From the NCBI GenBank assembly GCA_045652405.1, contig JAZRUF010000107.1, forward strand, positions 1-60,081: 60,081 bases of DNA, given 5' to 3'. Position 1 is the stretch's first letter, and every line of letters starts with the position of its first letter. The DNA is from Eubacteriales bacterium. Lineage in GTDB: Bacteria > Bacillota > Clostridia > Oscillospirales > JAAYXM01. The notes beneath the pieces are model-generated. The model worked only from the letters and a program-made list of their open reading frames with translations, made no database searches and was not told the DNA's origin. Positions 4,739 through 52,715 of this stretch are shown piece by piece. The translations under genes were made by a program, and so were the position numbers.

Positions 4739-5124
4739 CGAAATTACCTCCGATTATCTTTATCTGTTAACAGATTATGCAAAAGGAGATTATTTCGTCC
4801 GTTATTACTTGGATTTTAACCAAGCTGTGGCTATTGTTGGCAGCGGAACTACCCGGGGTTAAGCCTTCAATTTTTACCGGGAAGGAGTTTTCCAAAGTAG
4901 AGATTTTCTCATACAATGATATATCATTAATGAAAAACACCTTGAAATCAAAATTGTGCTAATAATAAGCAAAAAACAATGGCGTACAGGAAAAATATAT
5001 AATATAATATTATTGTACTTATAGGATTTAAACAGAGAAAGCAATAAAAGAGATTTATTATGCATTTGGGTGTAATGCCACATTAACGGTTTAATGAATT
5101 TTAAAAGGGAAAGGTGAACAGCAC

Positions 5125-5790
5125 ATGAATGAAAGTCTTAAAAAATGCATGCTAAAGCGCGTTGAGCGCACATGCGAGAATTTAAACAAAAATGGGATTG
5201 ACAGTTTTTACGTTGAGAAAAAAGAAGAGGTGGTTGAGCTTCTCAAAAAACTCATCAAACCCGGAGCGACGGTATCCGTAGGCGGTTCGGTAACTCTCGA
5301 TGAATGCAAAGTCACCGAGTTTTTGAAAAACGGAGATTTCAATTATCTTGACAGATATGCCCCCGGTCTCAACCGTGAGCAAATAGAGGAGATTTTTCAC
5401 AAAGCATTTTTTGCAGATGTGTATTTATCAAGCTCCAATGCGGTCACGGAAAAAGGTGAGCTTTATAATGTTGACGGTAATTCAAACCGCGTAGCCGCTA
5501 TTTTATACGGCCCCAAGCAGGTTATCTTAGTCTGTGGTGTAAATAAAATCGTGCCAGATATTCAAGCGGCGGTACAGCGCGTCAAAAGCGTGGCAGCACC
5601 GGCAAATGCCATGCGCTTAAATTGTGATACTTACTGTGCCAAAAGCGGAAATTGCGCAGGTGTAAACGGAGATATGCCGAGCGGCTGTGCTGGCGACGGC
5701 AGAATTTGCTGCAACTATGCAGTAAGTGCGAAACAGCGCAAATCCGGCAGAATTAAAGTGATTTTTGTCGGCGAAGAACTCGGGTATTAA
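5125..5790 (+). CDS. LUD (lactate-utilization, LutC/YkgG-like) domain protein with Cys-rich C-terminus
   Basis: Contains a GGSVTL block, NAVTEKGELYNVDGNSNRVAA, and C-terminal CDTYC..C..C motifs. Confidence 0.75.
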   Translation: MNESLKKCMLKRVERTCENLNKNGIDSFYVEKKEEVVELLKKLIKPGATVSVGGSVTLDECKVTEFLKNGDFNYLDRYAPGLNREQIEEIFHKAFFADVYLSSSNAVTEKGELYNVDGNSNRVAAILYGPKQVILVCGVNKIVPDIQAAVQRVKSVAAPANAMRLNCDTYCAKSGNCAGVNGDMPSGCAGDGRICCNYAVSAKQRKSGRIKVIFVGEELGY

Positions 5791-6147: not shown

Positions 6148-7395
6148 ATGGAGAAAACTAAATCATATGGGCTTGCAAAATATGCCTGCTATCTTACGAA
6201 TATATCAATGGCGGTTGTGGCTAGCTTATCACCGCTGTTGTTTGTCACGTTTCGTCAAATGTATGGGATTTCATATACTTTGCTTGGCTTGTTGGTAGTC
6301 GTAAATTTTTCAACTCAGTTGTTTATCGATTTGGTATTTGCTTTTTTTGCAAAAAAATTCGATATACAAAAAACAGTTCGGCTTATGCCATTTATTACTT
6401 TTTTAGGTCTTTTGATTTATGGAATACTTCCGGCGGTGTTTCCGAAAAGGGCATACTTGTGTATTGTGCTGGGAACGGTTGTGTTTTCGGTTTCTTCAGG
6501 CTTAAACGAGGTGTTGTCAAGTCCTGTAATAGCCGCTATTCCGAGCAAAAATCCTGAAAGAGAAATGAGTAAATTGCATTCAATGTATGCGTGGGGCGTA
6601 GTTGGTGTTGTTATAGTAAGCACGACGTTTTTAAGCGTGTTTGGAACTCACAATTGGGGATATCTGGCATTGTTTTGGTCGTTAGTTCCTCTGTCTGCAT
6701 TTATAATGTTCAGAAAAGCTGAACTTCCTGAAATCGGAAATTCAAATGATGAGTGCAAAAAACAAAAAAGTATAGGTATAGGAGTCATTCTTTGCTTTGT
6801 ATGCATATTCCTCGGTGGTGCTGCTGAGTGTACGATGGCGCAGTGGGCATCGGGCTTTATTGAAAACGCGATAGGGATACCGAAGCTTTGGGGTGATATA
6901 CTGGGCGTTGCGCTATTTGCGGCTCTTTTAGGGCTTGGACGAACTGTGTACACCAAATATGGGAAAAATGTACTTAATGTTATGCTCTGGGGAATGGCGG
7001 GTGCTGCAATATGCTATTTTGCTGCGAGCATCTCGCTCAATCACATAATAAGTCTTTGTGCATGTATTTTAACCGGAATTTGTGTTTCAATGTTATGGCC
7101 GGGAACTATAATATGCGTTGGCGAAAAATTCCCTTCAGCGGGAGTTGCAATTTATGCATTGATGGCTGCTGGAGGAGATATGGGAGCTTCGATTGCGCCT
7201 CAGTTGGTAGGTATCGTTTCAGATAAAATAAGCCTTAGCAATTTTGCTCTTGAATTATCGGAACTTCTTAAGATAAGCACGGAACAGATAGCAATGCGAA
7301 TGGGTTTGCTTGTTTCAACGGCATTTCCGATAATGGGTCTGATTGTGGTTATTTGCTTAAAGGCATATTTTTCTACACTGAGAAGTAATGGATAA
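6148..7395 (+). CDS. MFS transporter
   Basis: 415 aa with about 12 hydrophobic segments and a short charged central loop. Confidence 0.8.
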   Translation: MEKTKSYGLAKYACYLTNISMAVVASLSPLLFVTFRQMYGISYTLLGLLVVVNFSTQLFIDLVFAFFAKKFDIQKTVRLMPFITFLGLLIYGILPAVFPKRAYLCIVLGTVVFSVSSGLNEVLSSPVIAAIPSKNPEREMSKLHSMYAWGVVGVVIVSTTFLSVFGTHNWGYLALFWSLVPLSAFIMFRKAELPEIGNSNDECKKQKSIGIGVILCFVCIFLGGAAECTMAQWASGFIENAIGIPKLWGDILGVALFAALLGLGRTVYTKYGKNVLNVMLWGMAGAAICYFAASISLNHIISLCACILTGICVSMLWPGTIICVGEKFPSAGVAIYALMAAGGDMGASIAPQLVGIVSDKISLSNFALELSELLKISTEQIAMRMGLLVSTAFPIMGLIVVICLKAYFSTLRSNG

Positions 7396-13489: not shown

Positions 13490-14958
13490 AGCTTTATCTT
13501 AAAGGACATGATTACCGTTTTGCGGTAGAACAAATACTGGTGGTGCTCTTTCCGGGGGAAAAGCCGGAATATCCGGAAGGTGAGCCGTGCGGCGATTTTG
13601 CCGAAGTAAGTCTTAAAAAGACGAAAAAACAGATTTCGGCATGCACAAAACTTGTAAAAGACGGAAAGCTGTCGAGCTGTACATCTGTGTTGCCGTTGCC
13701 ACAGGACGATGACGTGCAGGAATATGACAGACGTGCGCGCCAGGTGATACGCACATCGTTTTTTAAAGCCAGTAAAAAAGCTTGCGGAATATCTCCGGAA
13801 TGGGGTGCGATGACCGGTATAAGGCCGGGGAAGGTTGCGCAGAAGCTTTTGGAGCAGGGCGAGAGCGATGAGAGTGTTGATAAGATACTCAAAAATGCAT
13901 ACTATGTAAAAAAGAAACGCCGTGATTTATGTCTTCAAGTTGCGCATGCGGGGATAAAAGCCTCGTTGGGTGGCACGGACAAGGATATATCTGTTTACGT
14001 GGGGATACCGTTTTGTGTGTCGAGGTGTAAATATTGCTCCTTTGTAAGCCATTCGATTGACAAGGCGCAGCATTTGGTTGAGCCCTATCTGGATGCACTT
14101 GTTTATGAAATGGAGAATACCGGCAGGGTAGCAAGGGAGCTTGGGCTTAATATTAAATCCGTATATATTGGAGGCGGTACGCCTACGTCACTTTCTGCCG
14201 CTCAGCTTGAGCGCGTGATGAAGGCTTTAAATCAAAACTTTGATTTATCGTCAATAGAGGAATATACGGTGGAAGCCGGGCGGCCGGACACAGTGGATAA
14301 AGAAAAGCTAAAGGTAATATTTGAAAACGGAGCGACGCGCATAAGCGCAAACCCGCAGACAATGGATGACCGTGTGCTGGAGCTCATGGGCCGTCGCCAC
14401 ACCGCGCAGGATATAGTAAAAATGGTGTCTGACATAAGAGCGTGCGGCGATATTGACATCAACATGGATGTTATTGCGGGACTACCGGGTGACAACATTG
14501 ATGGCTTTACAGATACTATTAAGAGAGTAATAAAGCTGGGTCCTGAAAACATAACCGTACATACTCTTGCCATAAAAAAAGGCTCCACACTAAAGGACGA
14601 AGGAGTTGCAATTCCAGACGGTGAGGAGACTCTCGCGATGGTAGAGTATGCGCAAAAGGCATTGAAGCGCGCAGGATATGCGCCGTACTACCTGTATAGG
14701 CAAAAGTATATGTCCGGAAATCTTGAAAACGTCGGATATGCGCGTGACGGAAGAATAGGGCTTTACAATATTTATATTATGGACGAGTTGCATACCATAC
14801 TTTCATTGGGGGCAGGAGGAGTTACAAAACTCGTCAATAAAAAAGAGGTCAAGATAGAGCGCATATTCAATCACAAATATCCGTATGAATATAACAATGC
14901 CCAAAATCGACTCGAGGAGAATGCGGAAAAGATACGTAACTTCTATAGCGAAAAATGA
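13486..14958 (+). CDS. hemZ: radical SAM coproporphyrinogen dehydrogenase-like protein (HemZ/HemN family)
   Basis: Has the CxxxCxYC radical SAM motif (CVSRCKYCSF) and a HemN-like C-terminal part. Its start overlaps the upstream stop by 4 nt. Confidence 0.75.
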   Translation: MKLYLKGHDYRFAVEQILVVLFPGEKPEYPEGEPCGDFAEVSLKKTKKQISACTKLVKDGKLSSCTSVLPLPQDDDVQEYDRRARQVIRTSFFKASKKACGISPEWGAMTGIRPGKVAQKLLEQGESDESVDKILKNAYYVKKKRRDLCLQVAHAGIKASLGGTDKDISVYVGIPFCVSRCKYCSFVSHSIDKAQHLVEPYLDALVYEMENTGRVARELGLNIKSVYIGGGTPTSLSAAQLERVMKALNQNFDLSSIEEYTVEAGRPDTVDKEKLKVIFENGATRISANPQTMDDRVLELMGRRHTAQDIVKMVSDIRACGDIDINMDVIAGLPGDNIDGFTDTIKRVIKLGPENITVHTLAIKKGSTLKDEGVAIPDGEETLAMVEYAQKALKRAGYAPYYLYRQKYMSGNLENVGYARDGRIGLYNIYIMDELHTILSLGAGGVTKLVNKKEVKIERIFNHKYPYEYNNAQNRLEENAEKIRNFYSEK

Positions 14959-37938: not shown

Positions 37939-37967
37939 TTGACAATCAGCTCGGAAATCTCTATAAT
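37939..37967 (+). promoter_or_regulatory. consensus sigmaA promoter TTGACA-17-TATAAT
   Basis: An exact hexamer pair lies about 20 nt upstream of tRNA-Pro. Confidence 0.8.
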
Positions 37968-37986: not shown

Positions 37987-38063
37987 CGGGTTGTGGCTCA
38001 GTTTGGTAGAGCGCTGCGTTCGGGACGCAGAGGCCGCAGGTTCAAATCCTGTCAACCCGACCA
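37987..38063 (+). tRNA. tRNA-Pro (anticodon CGG), CCA encoded
   Basis: The cloverleaf folds by hand. Acceptor is CGGGTTG/CAACCCG, anticodon arm is CTGCG-ttCGGga-CGCAG, and T-arm is GCAGG-ttcaaat-CCTGT. Confidence 0.95.
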
Positions 38064-38067
38064 AAAT

Positions 38068-38103
38068 AAAGGAATCTCGAAAACCGAGGTTCCTTTGTTT
38101 TTT
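38068..38103 (+). terminator. intrinsic terminator of tRNA-Pro
   Basis: AAAGGAATCTCG-aaaac-CGAGGTTCCTTT followed by GTTTTTT. Confidence 0.85.
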
Positions 38104-38108
38104 GTTTA

Positions 38109-38270
38109 GATTGGGAGGATTTGAACCTTAAGAAGGCATGCGGAGAAAAGCAAAATACTCCGGTGGAGTGTTTTGCCGACGCATGGTGCGAAGACGGGTA
38201 CTGAGCGGTTAAACCGCTCGGTCGTCAAGCAAATAAGACGCGAAGCGGCTGTATCCTGTCAACCCGACCA
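38109..38270 (+). ncRNA. tRNA-3'-end-linked structured element, copy 1 (unclassified candidate ncRNA or miniature element)
   Basis: 5' arm 38116-38128 is the reverse complement of the tRNA-Pro T-arm (13/13). Hairpin A is 38151-38175 and the TGGTGCG box is 38184-38190. The bulged hairpin B GACG-GGT-ACTG...CGGT-CGTC is 38193-38226, and hairpin C (GAA loop) is 38236-38250. The tail 38253-38270 is identical to the last 18 nt of tRNA-Pro. Confidence 0.55.
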
Positions 38271-38274
38271 AAAT

Positions 38275-38310
38275 AAAGGAATCTCGTAAAACGAGGTTCC
38301 TTTGTTTTTT
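38275..38310 (+). terminator. intrinsic terminator (near-duplicate of 38068-38103)
   Basis: It has the same stem as the tRNA-Pro terminator, with 2 substitutions at the loop edge, followed by a T-tract. Confidence 0.8.
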
Positions 38311-38315
38311 GTTTA

Positions 38316-38338
38316 GATTGGGAGGATTTGAACCTTAA
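38316..38338 (+). repeat. truncated second copy of the element 5' arm
   Basis: GATTGGGAGGATTTGAACCTTAA repeats 38109-38131 exactly and then diverges. It belongs to an 86-bp direct repeat (38046-38131 versus 38253-38338). Confidence 0.85.
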
Positions 38339-40088: not shown

Positions 40089-40165
40089 GCGCTCGTAGCT
40101 CAGCTGGATAGAGTGACTGGCTACGAACCAGTAGGTCAGGGGTTCGAGTCCCTTCGGGCGCGCCA
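40089..40165 (+). tRNA. tRNA-Arg (anticodon ACG), CCA encoded
   Basis: Acceptor is GCGCTCG/CGGGCGC, anticodon arm is ACTGG-ctACGaa-CCAGT, and T-arm is AGGGG-ttcgagt-CCCTT. Confidence 0.95.
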
Positions 40166-40216: not shown

Positions 40217-40378
40217 AGGAAAGGGACTCGAACCCTGAGAGGGCACGAACCGTGAAGCAAAACAGTCCGGTGGACTGTTTTGTAGGTGAGTGGTGCGCAG
40301 ACGGGTACTGAAAGGCAAAGCCTTTCGGTCGTCAAGCAGTGCGGTTGCAAAGCAATCGTTGTCCCTTCGGGCGCGCCA
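40217..40378 (+). ncRNA. tRNA-3'-end-linked structured element, copy 2
   Basis: 5' arm 40221-40235 is the reverse complement of the tRNA-Arg T-arm (15/15). Hairpin A is 40258-40282, the TGGTGCG box is 40291-40297 and hairpin B is 40300-40333. Hairpin C (AAA loop) is 40342-40358. The tail 40361-40378 is identical to the last 18 nt of tRNA-Arg. Confidence 0.55.
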
Positions 40379-47092: not shown

Positions 47093-47179
47093 GCGGATAT
47101 GGCGGAATCGGCAGACGCGCTAGATTCAGGTTCTAGTCGGGGCAACTCGGTGGAGGTTCAAGTCCTCTTATCCGCACCA
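47093..47179 (+). tRNA. tRNA-Leu (anticodon CAG), type II, CCA encoded
   Basis: Acceptor is GCGGATA/TATCCGC, anticodon arm is CTAGA-ttCAGgt-TCTAG. It has a long variable arm and the T-arm GGAGG-ttcaagt-CCTCT. Confidence 0.95.
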
Positions 47180-47218: not shown

Positions 47219-47375
47219 AAAAGAGGACTTGAATCTTAAGAAGGCAACGAGCGTACAAAAAACGATTCATAATCGTTTTTAGCGAAGTTGGTGCGCAGAC
47301 GGGTACTGAAAGGCGCTGCCTTTAGGTCGTCAAGCAAGTAAGACGCGAAGCGACTGTGTCCTCTTATTCGCACCA
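47219..47375 (+). ncRNA. tRNA-3'-end-linked structured element, copy 3
   Basis: 5' arm 47221-47236 is the reverse complement of the tRNA-Leu T-arm (15/16). Hairpin A, at 47258-47280, has a completely different stem sequence from the other copies. The TGGTGCG box is 47289-47295, hairpin B is 47298-47331 and hairpin C (GAA loop) is 47341-47355. The tail 47358-47375 matches 17/18 of the tRNA-Leu(CAG) 3' end. Confidence 0.55.
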
Positions 47376-52258: not shown

Positions 52259-52287
52259 TTGACAAATACGATAAAAACAGATATAAT
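52259..52287 (+). promoter_or_regulatory. consensus sigmaA promoter TTGACA-17-TATAAT
   Basis: Exact hexamers lie about 30 nt upstream of tRNA-Leu(GAG). Confidence 0.8.
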
Positions 52288-52318: not shown

Positions 52319-52402
52319 GCGAGTGTGCTGGAACTGGCAGACAGGCACGTTTGAGGGGCGTGTGCTTATGGCGTACGGGTTCAAGTCCCGTCACTCGCAC
52401 CA
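52319..52402 (+). tRNA. tRNA-Leu (anticodon GAG), type II, CCA encoded
   Basis: Acceptor is GCGAGTG/CACTCGC, anticodon arm is CACGT-ttGAGgg-GCGTG. It has a long variable arm and the T-arm ACGGG-ttcaagt-CCCGT. Confidence 0.9.
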
Positions 52403-52405
52403 AAT

Positions 52406-52437
52406 AAAAAAAGAACACCTATGGGTGTTCTTTTTTT
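52406..52437 (+). terminator. intrinsic terminator of tRNA-Leu(GAG)
   Basis: AGAACACC-tatg-GGTGTTCT followed by TTTTTT. Confidence 0.85.
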
Positions 52438-52450
52438 ATTTTATGATATC

Positions 52451-52598
52451 AGAAGGGACTTGAAGCCTAAGAGGGTTTTTGCGTAAAACAAAACAGTCCG
52501 GTGGACTGTTTTGTAGCAAAAAGGTGCGAAGACGGGTACTGCAAAGCGGTCGTCGAGCAAATAGTATGCGAAGCATACGTGTCCCGTCACTCGCACCA
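52451..52598 (+). ncRNA. tRNA-3'-end-linked structured element, copy 4
   Basis: 5' arm 52455-52464 is the reverse complement of the T-loop and T-stem of tRNA-Leu(GAG) (10/10, with partial matches beyond). Hairpin A is 52489-52513 and the GGTGCGA box is 52523-52529. Hairpin B, at 52531-52554, is minimal (ACTGC-aaa-GCGGT). Hairpin C (GAA loop) is 52564-52578. The tail 52581-52598 is identical to the last 18 nt of the tRNA. Confidence 0.55.
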
Positions 52599-52601
52599 AA
52601 T

Positions 52602-52633
52602 AAAAAAAGAACACCTATGGGTGTTCTTTTTTT
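52602..52633 (+). terminator. intrinsic terminator (exact duplicate of 52406-52437)
   Basis: It is part of the 54/54 identical direct repeat 52385-52438 = 52581-52634. Confidence 0.85.
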
Positions 52634-52715
52634 AGCTTATGTGGCAGAATTTTGACATAAAAAGGCGATGCAATTTAAATAGTTGCACCGCCTTTTCGCT
52701 TTATGCGAGGAAACA

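Follow-up and report, generated by a model that had tools for sequence, protein, structure and literature searches.

A recently homogenised copy of an apparently undescribed, tRNA-linked family of structured RNAs with ends cognate to the neighbouring tRNA in Clostridia

The stretch of DNA analysed here (contig JAZRUF010000107.1 of an Eubacteriales bacterium, 60,081 nt, referred to throughout as the window) includes four transfer RNA (tRNA) genes, identified by ARAGORN as those for Pro-CGG, Arg-ACG, Leu-CAG and Leu-GAG, and behind each of them lies one copy of an element of roughly 150 nt that contains no open reading frame (ORF). The element is recognised by a 19-nt core motif, GGTGCGNAGACGGGTACTG, which occurs four times in the window against an expectation of 0.02, each time approximately 130 nt downstream of one of the four tRNAs and on the same strand. 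When the four regions were aligned, they shared one layout. A terminator (R1) follows the tRNA and is separated by a short spacer from a segment antisense to the T-arm of that tRNA (antiT); next come a small hairpin (CCYN-NAG-NRGG), helix P2 and hairpin A as one long stretch, the segment GGUGCG-A-GACG-GGU-ACUG[hairpin B]CGGU-CGUC-RA-GCA and hairpin C, which varies, and finally the 18 nt with which the same tRNA ends, and a terminator. These 18 nt, the tail, are nt 59–76 in tRNA numbering, running from the last two T-loop bases through CCA. The features of the copy behind tRNA-Leu-GAG (copy 4), with which we are mainly concerned, are as follows.

52259–52287, + strand: promoter of tRNA-Leu-GAG, 12/12 consensus TTGACA-17-TATAAT, the sole promoter-like site upstream of the copy 4 element
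52319–52402, + strand: tRNA-Leu (GAG), intact, CCA encoded (ARAGORN; RF00005, 44 bits)
52385–52438, + strand: first copy of the repeat, comprising tRNA tail nt 59–76 (52385–52402) and terminator hairpin R1 (repeat search)
52455–52467, + strand: antiT, GGGACTTGAAGCC, reverse complement of the tRNA T-arm (inverted repeat 52377–52392 / 52452–52467)
52466–52474, + strand: small hairpin P1a, CCT-AAG-AGG (alignment helix 2)
52476–52522, + strand: P2 (TTTTTGC / GCAAAAA) around hairpin A (AAAACAGTCC-GGT-GGACTGTTTT, 52490–52512) (folds; alignment helix 3)
52525–52559, + strand: P3, the invariant core TGC / GAA / GACG / bulge GGT / ACTG / hairpin B (C-AAA-G, the shortest in the family) / CGGT / CGTC / GA / GCA (helices 4–6)
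52564–52578, + strand: hairpin C (P4), GTATGC-GAA-GCATAC, variable in sequence among copies
52581–52634, + strand: second copy of the repeat, comprising the second tail (nt 59–76, 52581–52598, CCA end) and terminator R2

An earlier reading, made from the letters alone (the sequence-only reading), had drawn attention to copy 4 because of an exact direct repeat at an offset of 196 bp, and a repeat search recovered the same coordinates and identity. The segments 52385–52438 and 52581–52634, whose starts are 196 nt apart, are identical at 54/54 positions, and an extended match covers 52385–52445 / 52581–52641 (61 nt, 97 %). The 54 nt consist of the 18 nt of tRNA-Leu-GAG (nt 59–76) followed by a terminator made up of an A-tract, a hairpin and a T-tract, and right past the T-tract identity drops sharply to ~60 %, a pattern that fits a recent conversion or duplication tract confined to the tail and terminator. 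The proposal in that reading of a recent event or ongoing homogenisation agrees with this collapse past the terminator and with the presence of two terminator classes in the family, described below. Hairpin B was also found as it had been described, with the sequence ACTGC-AAA-GCGGT at 52538–52550, where copies 1–3 have 6-bp stems, and the core is indeed the smallest, the hairpin B insert being 5 nt in copy 4 and 10–16 nt in the 33 others among 34 copies compared. Copy 4 is a recently homogenised member, with a minimal hairpin B, of an apparently undescribed family of structured RNAs linked to tRNAs. The remaining copies in the window are these.

38111–38270, + strand: copy 1, behind tRNA-Pro-CGG (37987–38063)
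40218–40378, + strand: copy 2, behind tRNA-Arg-ACG (40089–40165)
47219–47375, + strand: copy 3, behind tRNA-Leu-CAG (47093–47179)

The repeat that flanks copy 1 is 86 nt long with two differences (38046–38131 / 38253–38338) and extends into a second, partial antiT, while that of copy 3 is limited to the 18-nt tail (17/18) and lies next to two unrelated terminators.

Further members were sought with a pattern scan of GTDB genomes, one genome per species, and approximately 30 true loci were found, all of them in metagenome-assembled genomes (MAGs) of low-GC Clostridia labelled Oscillospiraceae, Acutalibacteraceae, Eubacteriales or Clostridia; the matches in high-GC genomes were set aside as chance. 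Every GTDB locus with enough flanking sequence has a same-strand tRNA ~130 nt upstream, the last 17–21 nt of which recur past the core, and the tRNAs concerned are those for Thr, Arg, Lys, Ser, Pro, Leu, Ala, Trp and Glu. A covariance model built from 28 copies, with which family loci score 100–146 bits, retrieved ~22 more copies from metagenomes and added Met, Gln and Lys-CTT, bringing the family beyond the window, in genomes of Oscillospirales and in metagenomes, to ~55 copies and 11 amino-acid specificities. Among viral contigs there were 26 pattern matches and no true copies. Rfam 15, applied at gathering and permissive (E<=10) thresholds to the window, copy 4 and nine related loci, returned tRNA matches alone, and full-text literature searches yielded no description of the family, which appears to be undescribed and corresponds to no catalogued RNA family or mobile element that we could find.

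The fold of the family was tested on an alignment of 28 sequences, with partners slid by 1–3 columns and 500 shuffles as controls. In the alignment, 96 % of cells are paired, compared to 37–49 % in the slid controls, and there are 127 double-sided changes, a number reached by none of the 500 shuffles (35 ± 5), with compensatory changes at 16 of the 33 pairs. There are 68 G.U cells and 8 A.C cells, and hence the folding strand is the tRNA-sense strand. Helices kept by compensatory change and a strand asymmetry in G.U pairs are the marks of a structured RNA and, judged by this comparison of sequences, the element has in its interior an RNA fold that is conserved and lies on the tRNA-sense strand. 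The variable-length stem on an invariant ACUG/CGGU base, which the sequence-only reading had taken as behaviour typical of structured RNAs, was borne out: the three pairs above the base of hairpin B covary (double-sided changes: 14, 12 and 14), and all 28 sequences keep the U.G of the base. The GGU bulge and its flanking helices are likewise invariant in all 28. P2, which flanks hairpin A, was missed by the alignment and is visible in individual folds (for example UUUUUGC/GCAAAAA, CAUGCG/CGCAUG, CACAAAGC/GCUUUGUG and CGCC/GGCG), and pairing within it is better between native strands than when strands are exchanged among subtypes (p=7e-8).

Several other readings of the fold were rejected. A minus-strand RNA has an equally stable single-sequence fold, yet the 68 G.U cells would turn into A.C mismatches. 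A kink-turn in the GAA/GA internal loop conflicts with GACG/CGUC, which is an invariant Watson–Crick helix in another register, and a box C/D or hammerhead reading of CUGAGA with the variation of this motif (CUUAAGA, CCGAGG, CCGUGG). Between GGUGCG and the tail's acceptor strand, the apparent pairing in the Leu and Arg copies is a coincidence, and UGC instead covaries with GCA. We also note that the GGU bulge (52535–52537 in the window, present in all copies), which lies between two invariant helices, could pair with the NCC of a CCA end; bulge and CCA are both invariant.

The tails and antiT segments were compared in the same 34 copies as hairpin B. The tail is matched at 18/18 positions in 26 of them, even between unrelated flanking terminators. 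In all copies, antiT is complementary to nt 54–58 and nt 59–65 of the tRNA, 12 contiguous bases, with an A-U pair at position 58; it complements T-loop position 57 (TTCAA to TTGAA; TTCGA to TCGAA) in 33 of the 34, the exception being a parsing error, and follows the variable positions 59–60 too. P1, formed by its first 7 nt and the 7 nt with which the tail begins, closes the fold. The five bases that follow (the anti-T-loop) are left unpaired within the RNA, and the last bases of antiT build the small hairpin. In copy 4, GGGAC (52455–52459) pairs with GTCCC of the second tail as P1 and TTGAA (52460–52464) is the anti-T-loop. The repeat begins at nt 59 (±1–2) in all copies and ends at CCA in the class with unrelated terminators. 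By pairing on one side and identity on the other, both ends of the element are cognate to the neighbouring tRNA. In the interior of the core there is no excess complementarity or identity to tRNA nt 1–49, and cores behind Arg-ACG, Glu-CTC and Ser tRNAs are 83–88 % identical.

Other cores, unrelated to this one, are also found behind tRNAs between an antiT and a tail of the same logic. At least four such types were distinguished, at L024 (− strand, ~2076–2197) and L088 (6269–6393), at L097 (700–897), at L112 (6790–6960), and at L080 (5870–6060) and L115 (3320–3435), where L numbers denote loci outside the window. They sometimes share one array with the core described above (type 1), and none was matched in Rfam. 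Kinship of the longer types with RNase P RNA, suggested by UAGAUGA-like strings, was rejected as it had no Rfam support. At L097 (589–930), the tRNA-Ser-GCT has no encoded CCA, and the tail of its type 3 element runs on into the gene's own trailer and terminator; the type 1 unit behind tRNA-Trp at L097, which would be the informative one, is cut by the end of the locus. Reverse transcription of a mature tRNA, halted at 1-methyladenosine 58 (m1A58), was considered as the source of the tail and is not supported by this CCA-less tRNA-Ser, whose tail continues with the trailer.

Repeats fall into two classes. In about half of the copies, including copy 3 of the window, nt 59–76 alone are repeated, the repeat stops at CCA and the terminators are unrelated; in the other half, including copies 1, 2 and 4, tail and terminator are repeated at 85–100 % identity, sometimes together with the spacer and the start of antiT. 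That the tail is intact where all of its surroundings have changed argues for constraint rather than a passive leftover.

Across the family, units are gained, lost, amplified and retargeted, and there are arrays and partial units, one solo remnant, and sites that lack the element. L080 has two identical units in tandem and L176 three units and a partial one, and arrays start with the tail directly after nt 58 and finish in 5′-partial units. In the relative L148, where the lacI neighbour is 75 % identical, the tRNA-Leu-GAG is without the element and the tRNA-Leu-CAG is followed by a terminator and a solo antiT (ACAGGACTTGAACCTTAAGAAGGCAT) without core or tail; a further relative, L183, has a bare tRNA-Leu-TAG. 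The sequence-only reading had predicted that recombination between the repeats would delete the unit, and between genomes such loss, and also gain, is visible in the arrays of L080 and L176 and in the solo antiT and empty site of L148. However, no allele of the copy 4 locus with the unit deleted was found, exact-protein look-ups of both flanking genes giving one 3-kb contig or nothing. The interpretation in the sequence-only reading is upheld for the structured stem and the homogenisation, and not for a deletion at this exact locus. The repeat belongs to the design of the element, with a tail cognate to each tRNA, which that reading overlooked along with the antisense T-arm at the opposite end and the wide distribution of the family. 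Tails at L042, L115 and L172 are decaying, and one copy (L108) lies away from any tRNA, between two copies of the terminator of a protein gene. The same tRNA species is followed by different core subtypes in different genomes and in non-syntenic contexts, as in window copy 1 and L110.

Breakpoints recur in the loop of hairpin A (CAGTCC-GGTG-GACTG), namely in the distal partial unit of L154/L173, at ~2130 in L165, in the last unit of L176 and at ~5960 in L068. Partial units end in ...CAGTCCGGTGGA and one left-truncated unit begins with GTCCGGTGGACTG, while the last unit of L176 is joined to a diverged tail via GTCC microhomology. In L061 (6271–6440) and L108 (− strand), two tRNA-Pro-type units are followed, past the tail, by the same ~100-nt module, which starts with GTCGAG(T/A)GCCTCGACACGCAAT and resembles a long terminator-like hairpin; beyond it, L061 has one more tail, which is degenerate, and a further antiT.

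Near copies 1 and 4, the sole promoter-like sites are the 12/12 promoters of the tRNAs, and at L112 a single operon has one tRNA on either side of the element, which together make read-through transcription the natural assumption. The element would then be transcribed, as we infer from these sites, by read-through from a strong tRNA promoter. The perfect 12/12 sigma-70 consensus of tRNA-Leu-GAG (52259–52287) is shared by tRNA-Pro-CGG (37939–37967), with the same TTGACA-17-TATAAT. The copy 4 read-through transcript has a minimum-free-energy fold in which antiT is base-paired to the T-arm, as is the second tail to the 5′ acceptor strand.

The explanation that we tentatively favour, at somewhat less than an even chance, is that the unit is a guide-bearing selfish element, either intron-like or RNA-guided, that enters the T-loop between nt 58 and 59 and leaves repeats which then recombine in the ordinary way. 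To go from a conserved fold with cognate ends to a guide function and a mechanism of mobility is a step of interpretation, and the scheme is set out here as it would operate. One unit would comprise tail nt 59–76, the terminator, the spacer, antiT and the ~120-nt four-helix core, and would formally be inserted in the T-loop between nt 58 and 59, such that the displaced original tail and terminator at its right end become the second arm of the direct repeat. As the unit supplies a replacement tail and terminator, the tRNA gene would stay intact. Insertion at this position of a unit with its own tail and terminator would also account for the conservation of the distal terminator and flank that the Lys-TTT loci L020, L113 and L034 share. 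The RNA would fold into a junction closed by P1, i.e. by antiT with the first 7 nt of the tail, exposing the 5-nt anti-T-loop and an 11-nt overhang of acceptor strand and CCA. The antiT could then act as an internal guide that keeps the end of a ‘5′ exon’ in place across the junction, with nt 54–58 on one side and nt 59–65 on the other, and the tail as an attached ‘3′ exon’. Such guide logic would direct installation or propagation to the T-loops of tRNAs, in an intron-like manner via an RNA intermediate or by RNA-guided recombination with a trans-acting enzyme. Ordinary homologous recombination between the direct repeats would thereafter amplify units in tandem, delete them or lead to gene conversion, and the 54/54 identity in copy 4 would represent a recent conversion or duplication tract over tail and terminator.

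That the core is itself a small ribozyme or a ribonucleoprotein (RNP) scaffold, in which antiT would guide strand exchange at the 58/59 junction of the cognate tRNA or tRNA gene and thereby swap or donate the 18-nt 3′ segment or guide its own insertion, we consider distinctly unlikely. If true, it would constitute a new class of guide-programmed, intron-like mobile RNA, the host tRNA being kept functional by a spare tail and terminator. More generally, if the favoured explanation holds, a compact natural RNA of ~150 nt with ends rewritten for each tRNA around an invariant core would bear the hallmark of a programmable guide system with no known effector. It could reveal a new route by which mobile elements colonise essential genes harmlessly, a new tRNA-directed RNA activity (repair, surveillance or decoy), or a new chemistry of RNA-guided recombination or splicing. 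The units are unannotated, break assemblies at tRNA loci and make recombination-prone repeats beside many tRNA genes of abundant gut Clostridia.

Several points weigh against a guide-bearing selfish element. No enzyme partner was identified: the neighbours in the window are housekeeping genes, and no reverse transcriptase, TnpB, IS110 or integrase belongs to the unit. Transcription of the element and any reaction at the RNA level are presumed from the sequence, and retargeting demands a joint change of antiT and the 5′-borne tail by a mechanism that the explanation does not provide. The antiT often mismatches tRNA nt 50–53 (G opposite G53 in copy 4, L046, L088 and L112), and nt 54–65 alone are reliably covered. 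At L097 (type 3), the single CCA-less case, the tail copies the gene trailer, as a duplication at the level of DNA or of the primary transcript would. The four copies in the window diverge by ~30 % and hence spread is not recent here. Finally, the existence of several unrelated core types with shared end logic means that the ends, and not the core, may carry the mechanism.

A host-serving companion RNA, co-transcribed with the tRNA, is rather unlikely in our view. Its anti-T-loop and spare tail would attach to a cognate tRNA that has lost its own 3′ 18 nt or had them displaced (at nt 54–58 and acceptor strand nt 1–7), and it could serve as a repair splint or donor, as a quality-control clamp, or as a decoy for enzymes or toxins that act on tRNA 3′ ends; the GGU bulge would dock the CCA end in the manner of RNase P L15 or the T-box bulge, and the repeat in the DNA would be a by-product of the need for a copy of the tail. 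Fold and tail are under purifying selection, which speaks for a companion RNA. Compensatory change is seen between copies behind the same tRNA across genomes while the first terminator was replaced (hairpin C and P2; L020, L046 and L113), which favours this possibility, as do the tails kept at 18/18 that stop exactly at CCA between unrelated flanks, the presence of the element behind 4/4 tRNAs in the window, the lack of any selfish gene content, and the GGU bulge and flanking helices that are the same in 28/28 sequences. Against this, the distribution is patchy, with bare tRNAs in the relatives L148 and L183 and decaying tails at L042, L115 and L172; the near-identical tandem arrays and truncated units resemble selfish or recombinogenic DNA, the core subtype behind one tRNA species differs between genomes (window copy 1 and L110), and we know of no tRNA fragment ending at nt 58 in these bacteria.

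Scars of integrase activity are, we think, improbable. In this case, the units would be integrase-less islands at tRNA 3′ ends, akin to cis-mobilisable elements (CIMEs), with the repeat as attL/attR, accretion as the source of the arrays, and a core that is small RNA cargo mobilised in trans. A direct repeat of the 3′ part of a tRNA from the T-loop onwards, with the tRNA left intact, is reportedly the classic signature of tRNA-targeting integrases, and here too the insert is flanked by such a repeat and the tRNA is intact. Tandem units occur, other islands use the same tRNAs (a serine-recombinase prophage at L034 and possible anticodon-loop island ends at L154, L158 and L173, both described below), and antiT, as double-stranded DNA, amounts to a second, inverted T-arm site. 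Still, no integrase was found in or beside any unit examined, there are no phage copies, and hairpin C, which adjoins the second tail on its left, varies in sequence instead of reproducing the 5′ half-site of the T-stem. Integrase lineages keep one attB, whereas one core lineage is spread here over at least 11 amino-acid specificities, with cores 83–88 % identical behind Arg, Glu, Ser, Pro and Leu tRNAs, and RNA covariation with G.U pairs is not explained by a DNA site. The resemblance to CIMEs and other tRNA integrative elements lies in the 3′ direct repeat from the T-loop, the intact tRNA, and tandem accretion and loss through the repeats; the family differs in its unit of 150–200 bp without an integrase, the antisense T-arm at the far end, one core lineage spread over more than 20 anticodon species and the covarying interior.

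A non-autonomous IS200/IS605 element with a TnpB-like guide RNA is a highly improbable source of the units. It would be inserted 3′ of T-loop TTCRA as its target-adjacent motif (TAM), with the core as the right-end scaffold and the tRNA tail as the 3′ guide. In keeping with such an origin, a scaffold of ~130 nt precedes 18 nt that repeat the flanking DNA, the boundary on the left always comes directly after TTCAA or TTCGA, and the ends are hairpin-rich and include GCGAAGC mini-hairpins. However, there is no tnpA or tnpB ORF in the window and no match to Rfam IS605-orfB or omega-RNA, the right end is variable and has no conserved cleavage motif, the guide would hit the intact adjoining tRNA gene, i.e. 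lethal self-targeting, and these systems have no counterpart of antiT. The likeness to TnpB/IscB guide RNAs, a scaffold then a 3′ segment equal to the flanking target with a conserved pentanucleotide (TTCRA) just 5′ of it, is offset by the lack of a nuclease gene, by self-targeting and by an antiT that has no equivalent. Plain, functionless local tandem duplication of a tRNA 3′ end and terminator, with copy 4 a matter of chance, would be compatible with the 54/54 identity and tandem arrangement taken by themselves, but it can be excluded for practical purposes because the same architecture, cognate ends, core and covariation are conserved family-wide, in ~55 other copies and behind 4/4 tRNAs in the window.

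Returning to a guide-bearing element, one of the closest known arrangements is the guide of group I introns (P1/P10, including bacterial tRNA introns), where a guide near the RNA 5′ end spans one junction, as antiT would; in both, the part that pairs with the 3′ side lies 5′ of the part that pairs with the 5′ side, and the host is a tRNA. The family differs in its ~120-nt core, in an A-U rather than a U.G at position 58, and in a tRNA that is uninterrupted (replacement tail and terminator), and no match to the group I core (RF00028) was found at the gathering threshold or at E<=10. The bridge (seek) RNAs of IS110/IS1111 are structured non-coding RNAs with programmable segments and guides of 4–9 nt (Durrant et al. 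2024, PMC11208160). Like them, the family has two segments on opposite strands (top, nt 54–65; bottom, the tail, nt 59–76) that overlap in a short core. However, its segments lie at the RNA ends and not in internal loops, there is no donor loop, and the guides would be 12–18 nt instead of 4–9 nt; a single pair of cognate segments, at the RNA termini, stands in place of the two loops (target and donor) of IS110, and in the window no DEDD/serine recombinase gene of the IS110 type is adjacent. Readers of the CCA end (the RNase P L15 loop and the T-box antiterminator bulge) share the order of helix, 5′-side bulge with GG(U) and helix, and the family RNA ends in NCCA, but the bulge is 3 nt rather than 7 nt and no T-box or RNase P match was obtained. 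The 18-nt segments of retroviral primer-binding sites and of the tRNA-derived fragments tRF-3a are exactly nt 59–76 with CCA; in the family, however, the segment is sense and not complementary, there is no reverse transcriptase, and the trailer was copied in one CCA-less case.

The genes that flank the copies in the window are housekeeping genes, encoding peptidase U32, an RluA-type pseudouridine synthase, a CNNM transporter, glutamine synthetase, a P-type ATPase, an SLH-amidase and a LacI regulator, and relatives do not keep the gene order around lacI and glnA. Elsewhere, other elements were seen at the same tRNAs. At L034 (2688–4280, − strand), the ORF of a large serine recombinase (Resolvase/Recombinase/Zn_ribbon_recom) runs into a degenerate piece of tRNA 3′ end just upstream of a type 1 element; a prophage or integrative and conjugative element (ICE) appears to use the tRNA T-loop region as its attachment site, and the recombinase belongs to this separate upstream prophage. 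L154 (~6535–6830, − strand), L158 (~4960–5200, + strand) and L173 (~13850–14100, + strand) share ~250 nt of conserved non-coding sequence, which has a promoter-like TTG...TATAAT of its own. This stretch opens with the 5′ acceptor strand of tRNA-Pro (CGAGGCG) and directly joins the 3′ half of tRNA-Pro-TGG from the anticodon loop on. There was no Rfam match to it and the genes further upstream differ (GmrSD, a kinase and AAA_14 in L154; DUF4238 in L158). It represents either an unusual tRNA-like RNA or the end, conserved among them, of islands that entered the anticodon loop.

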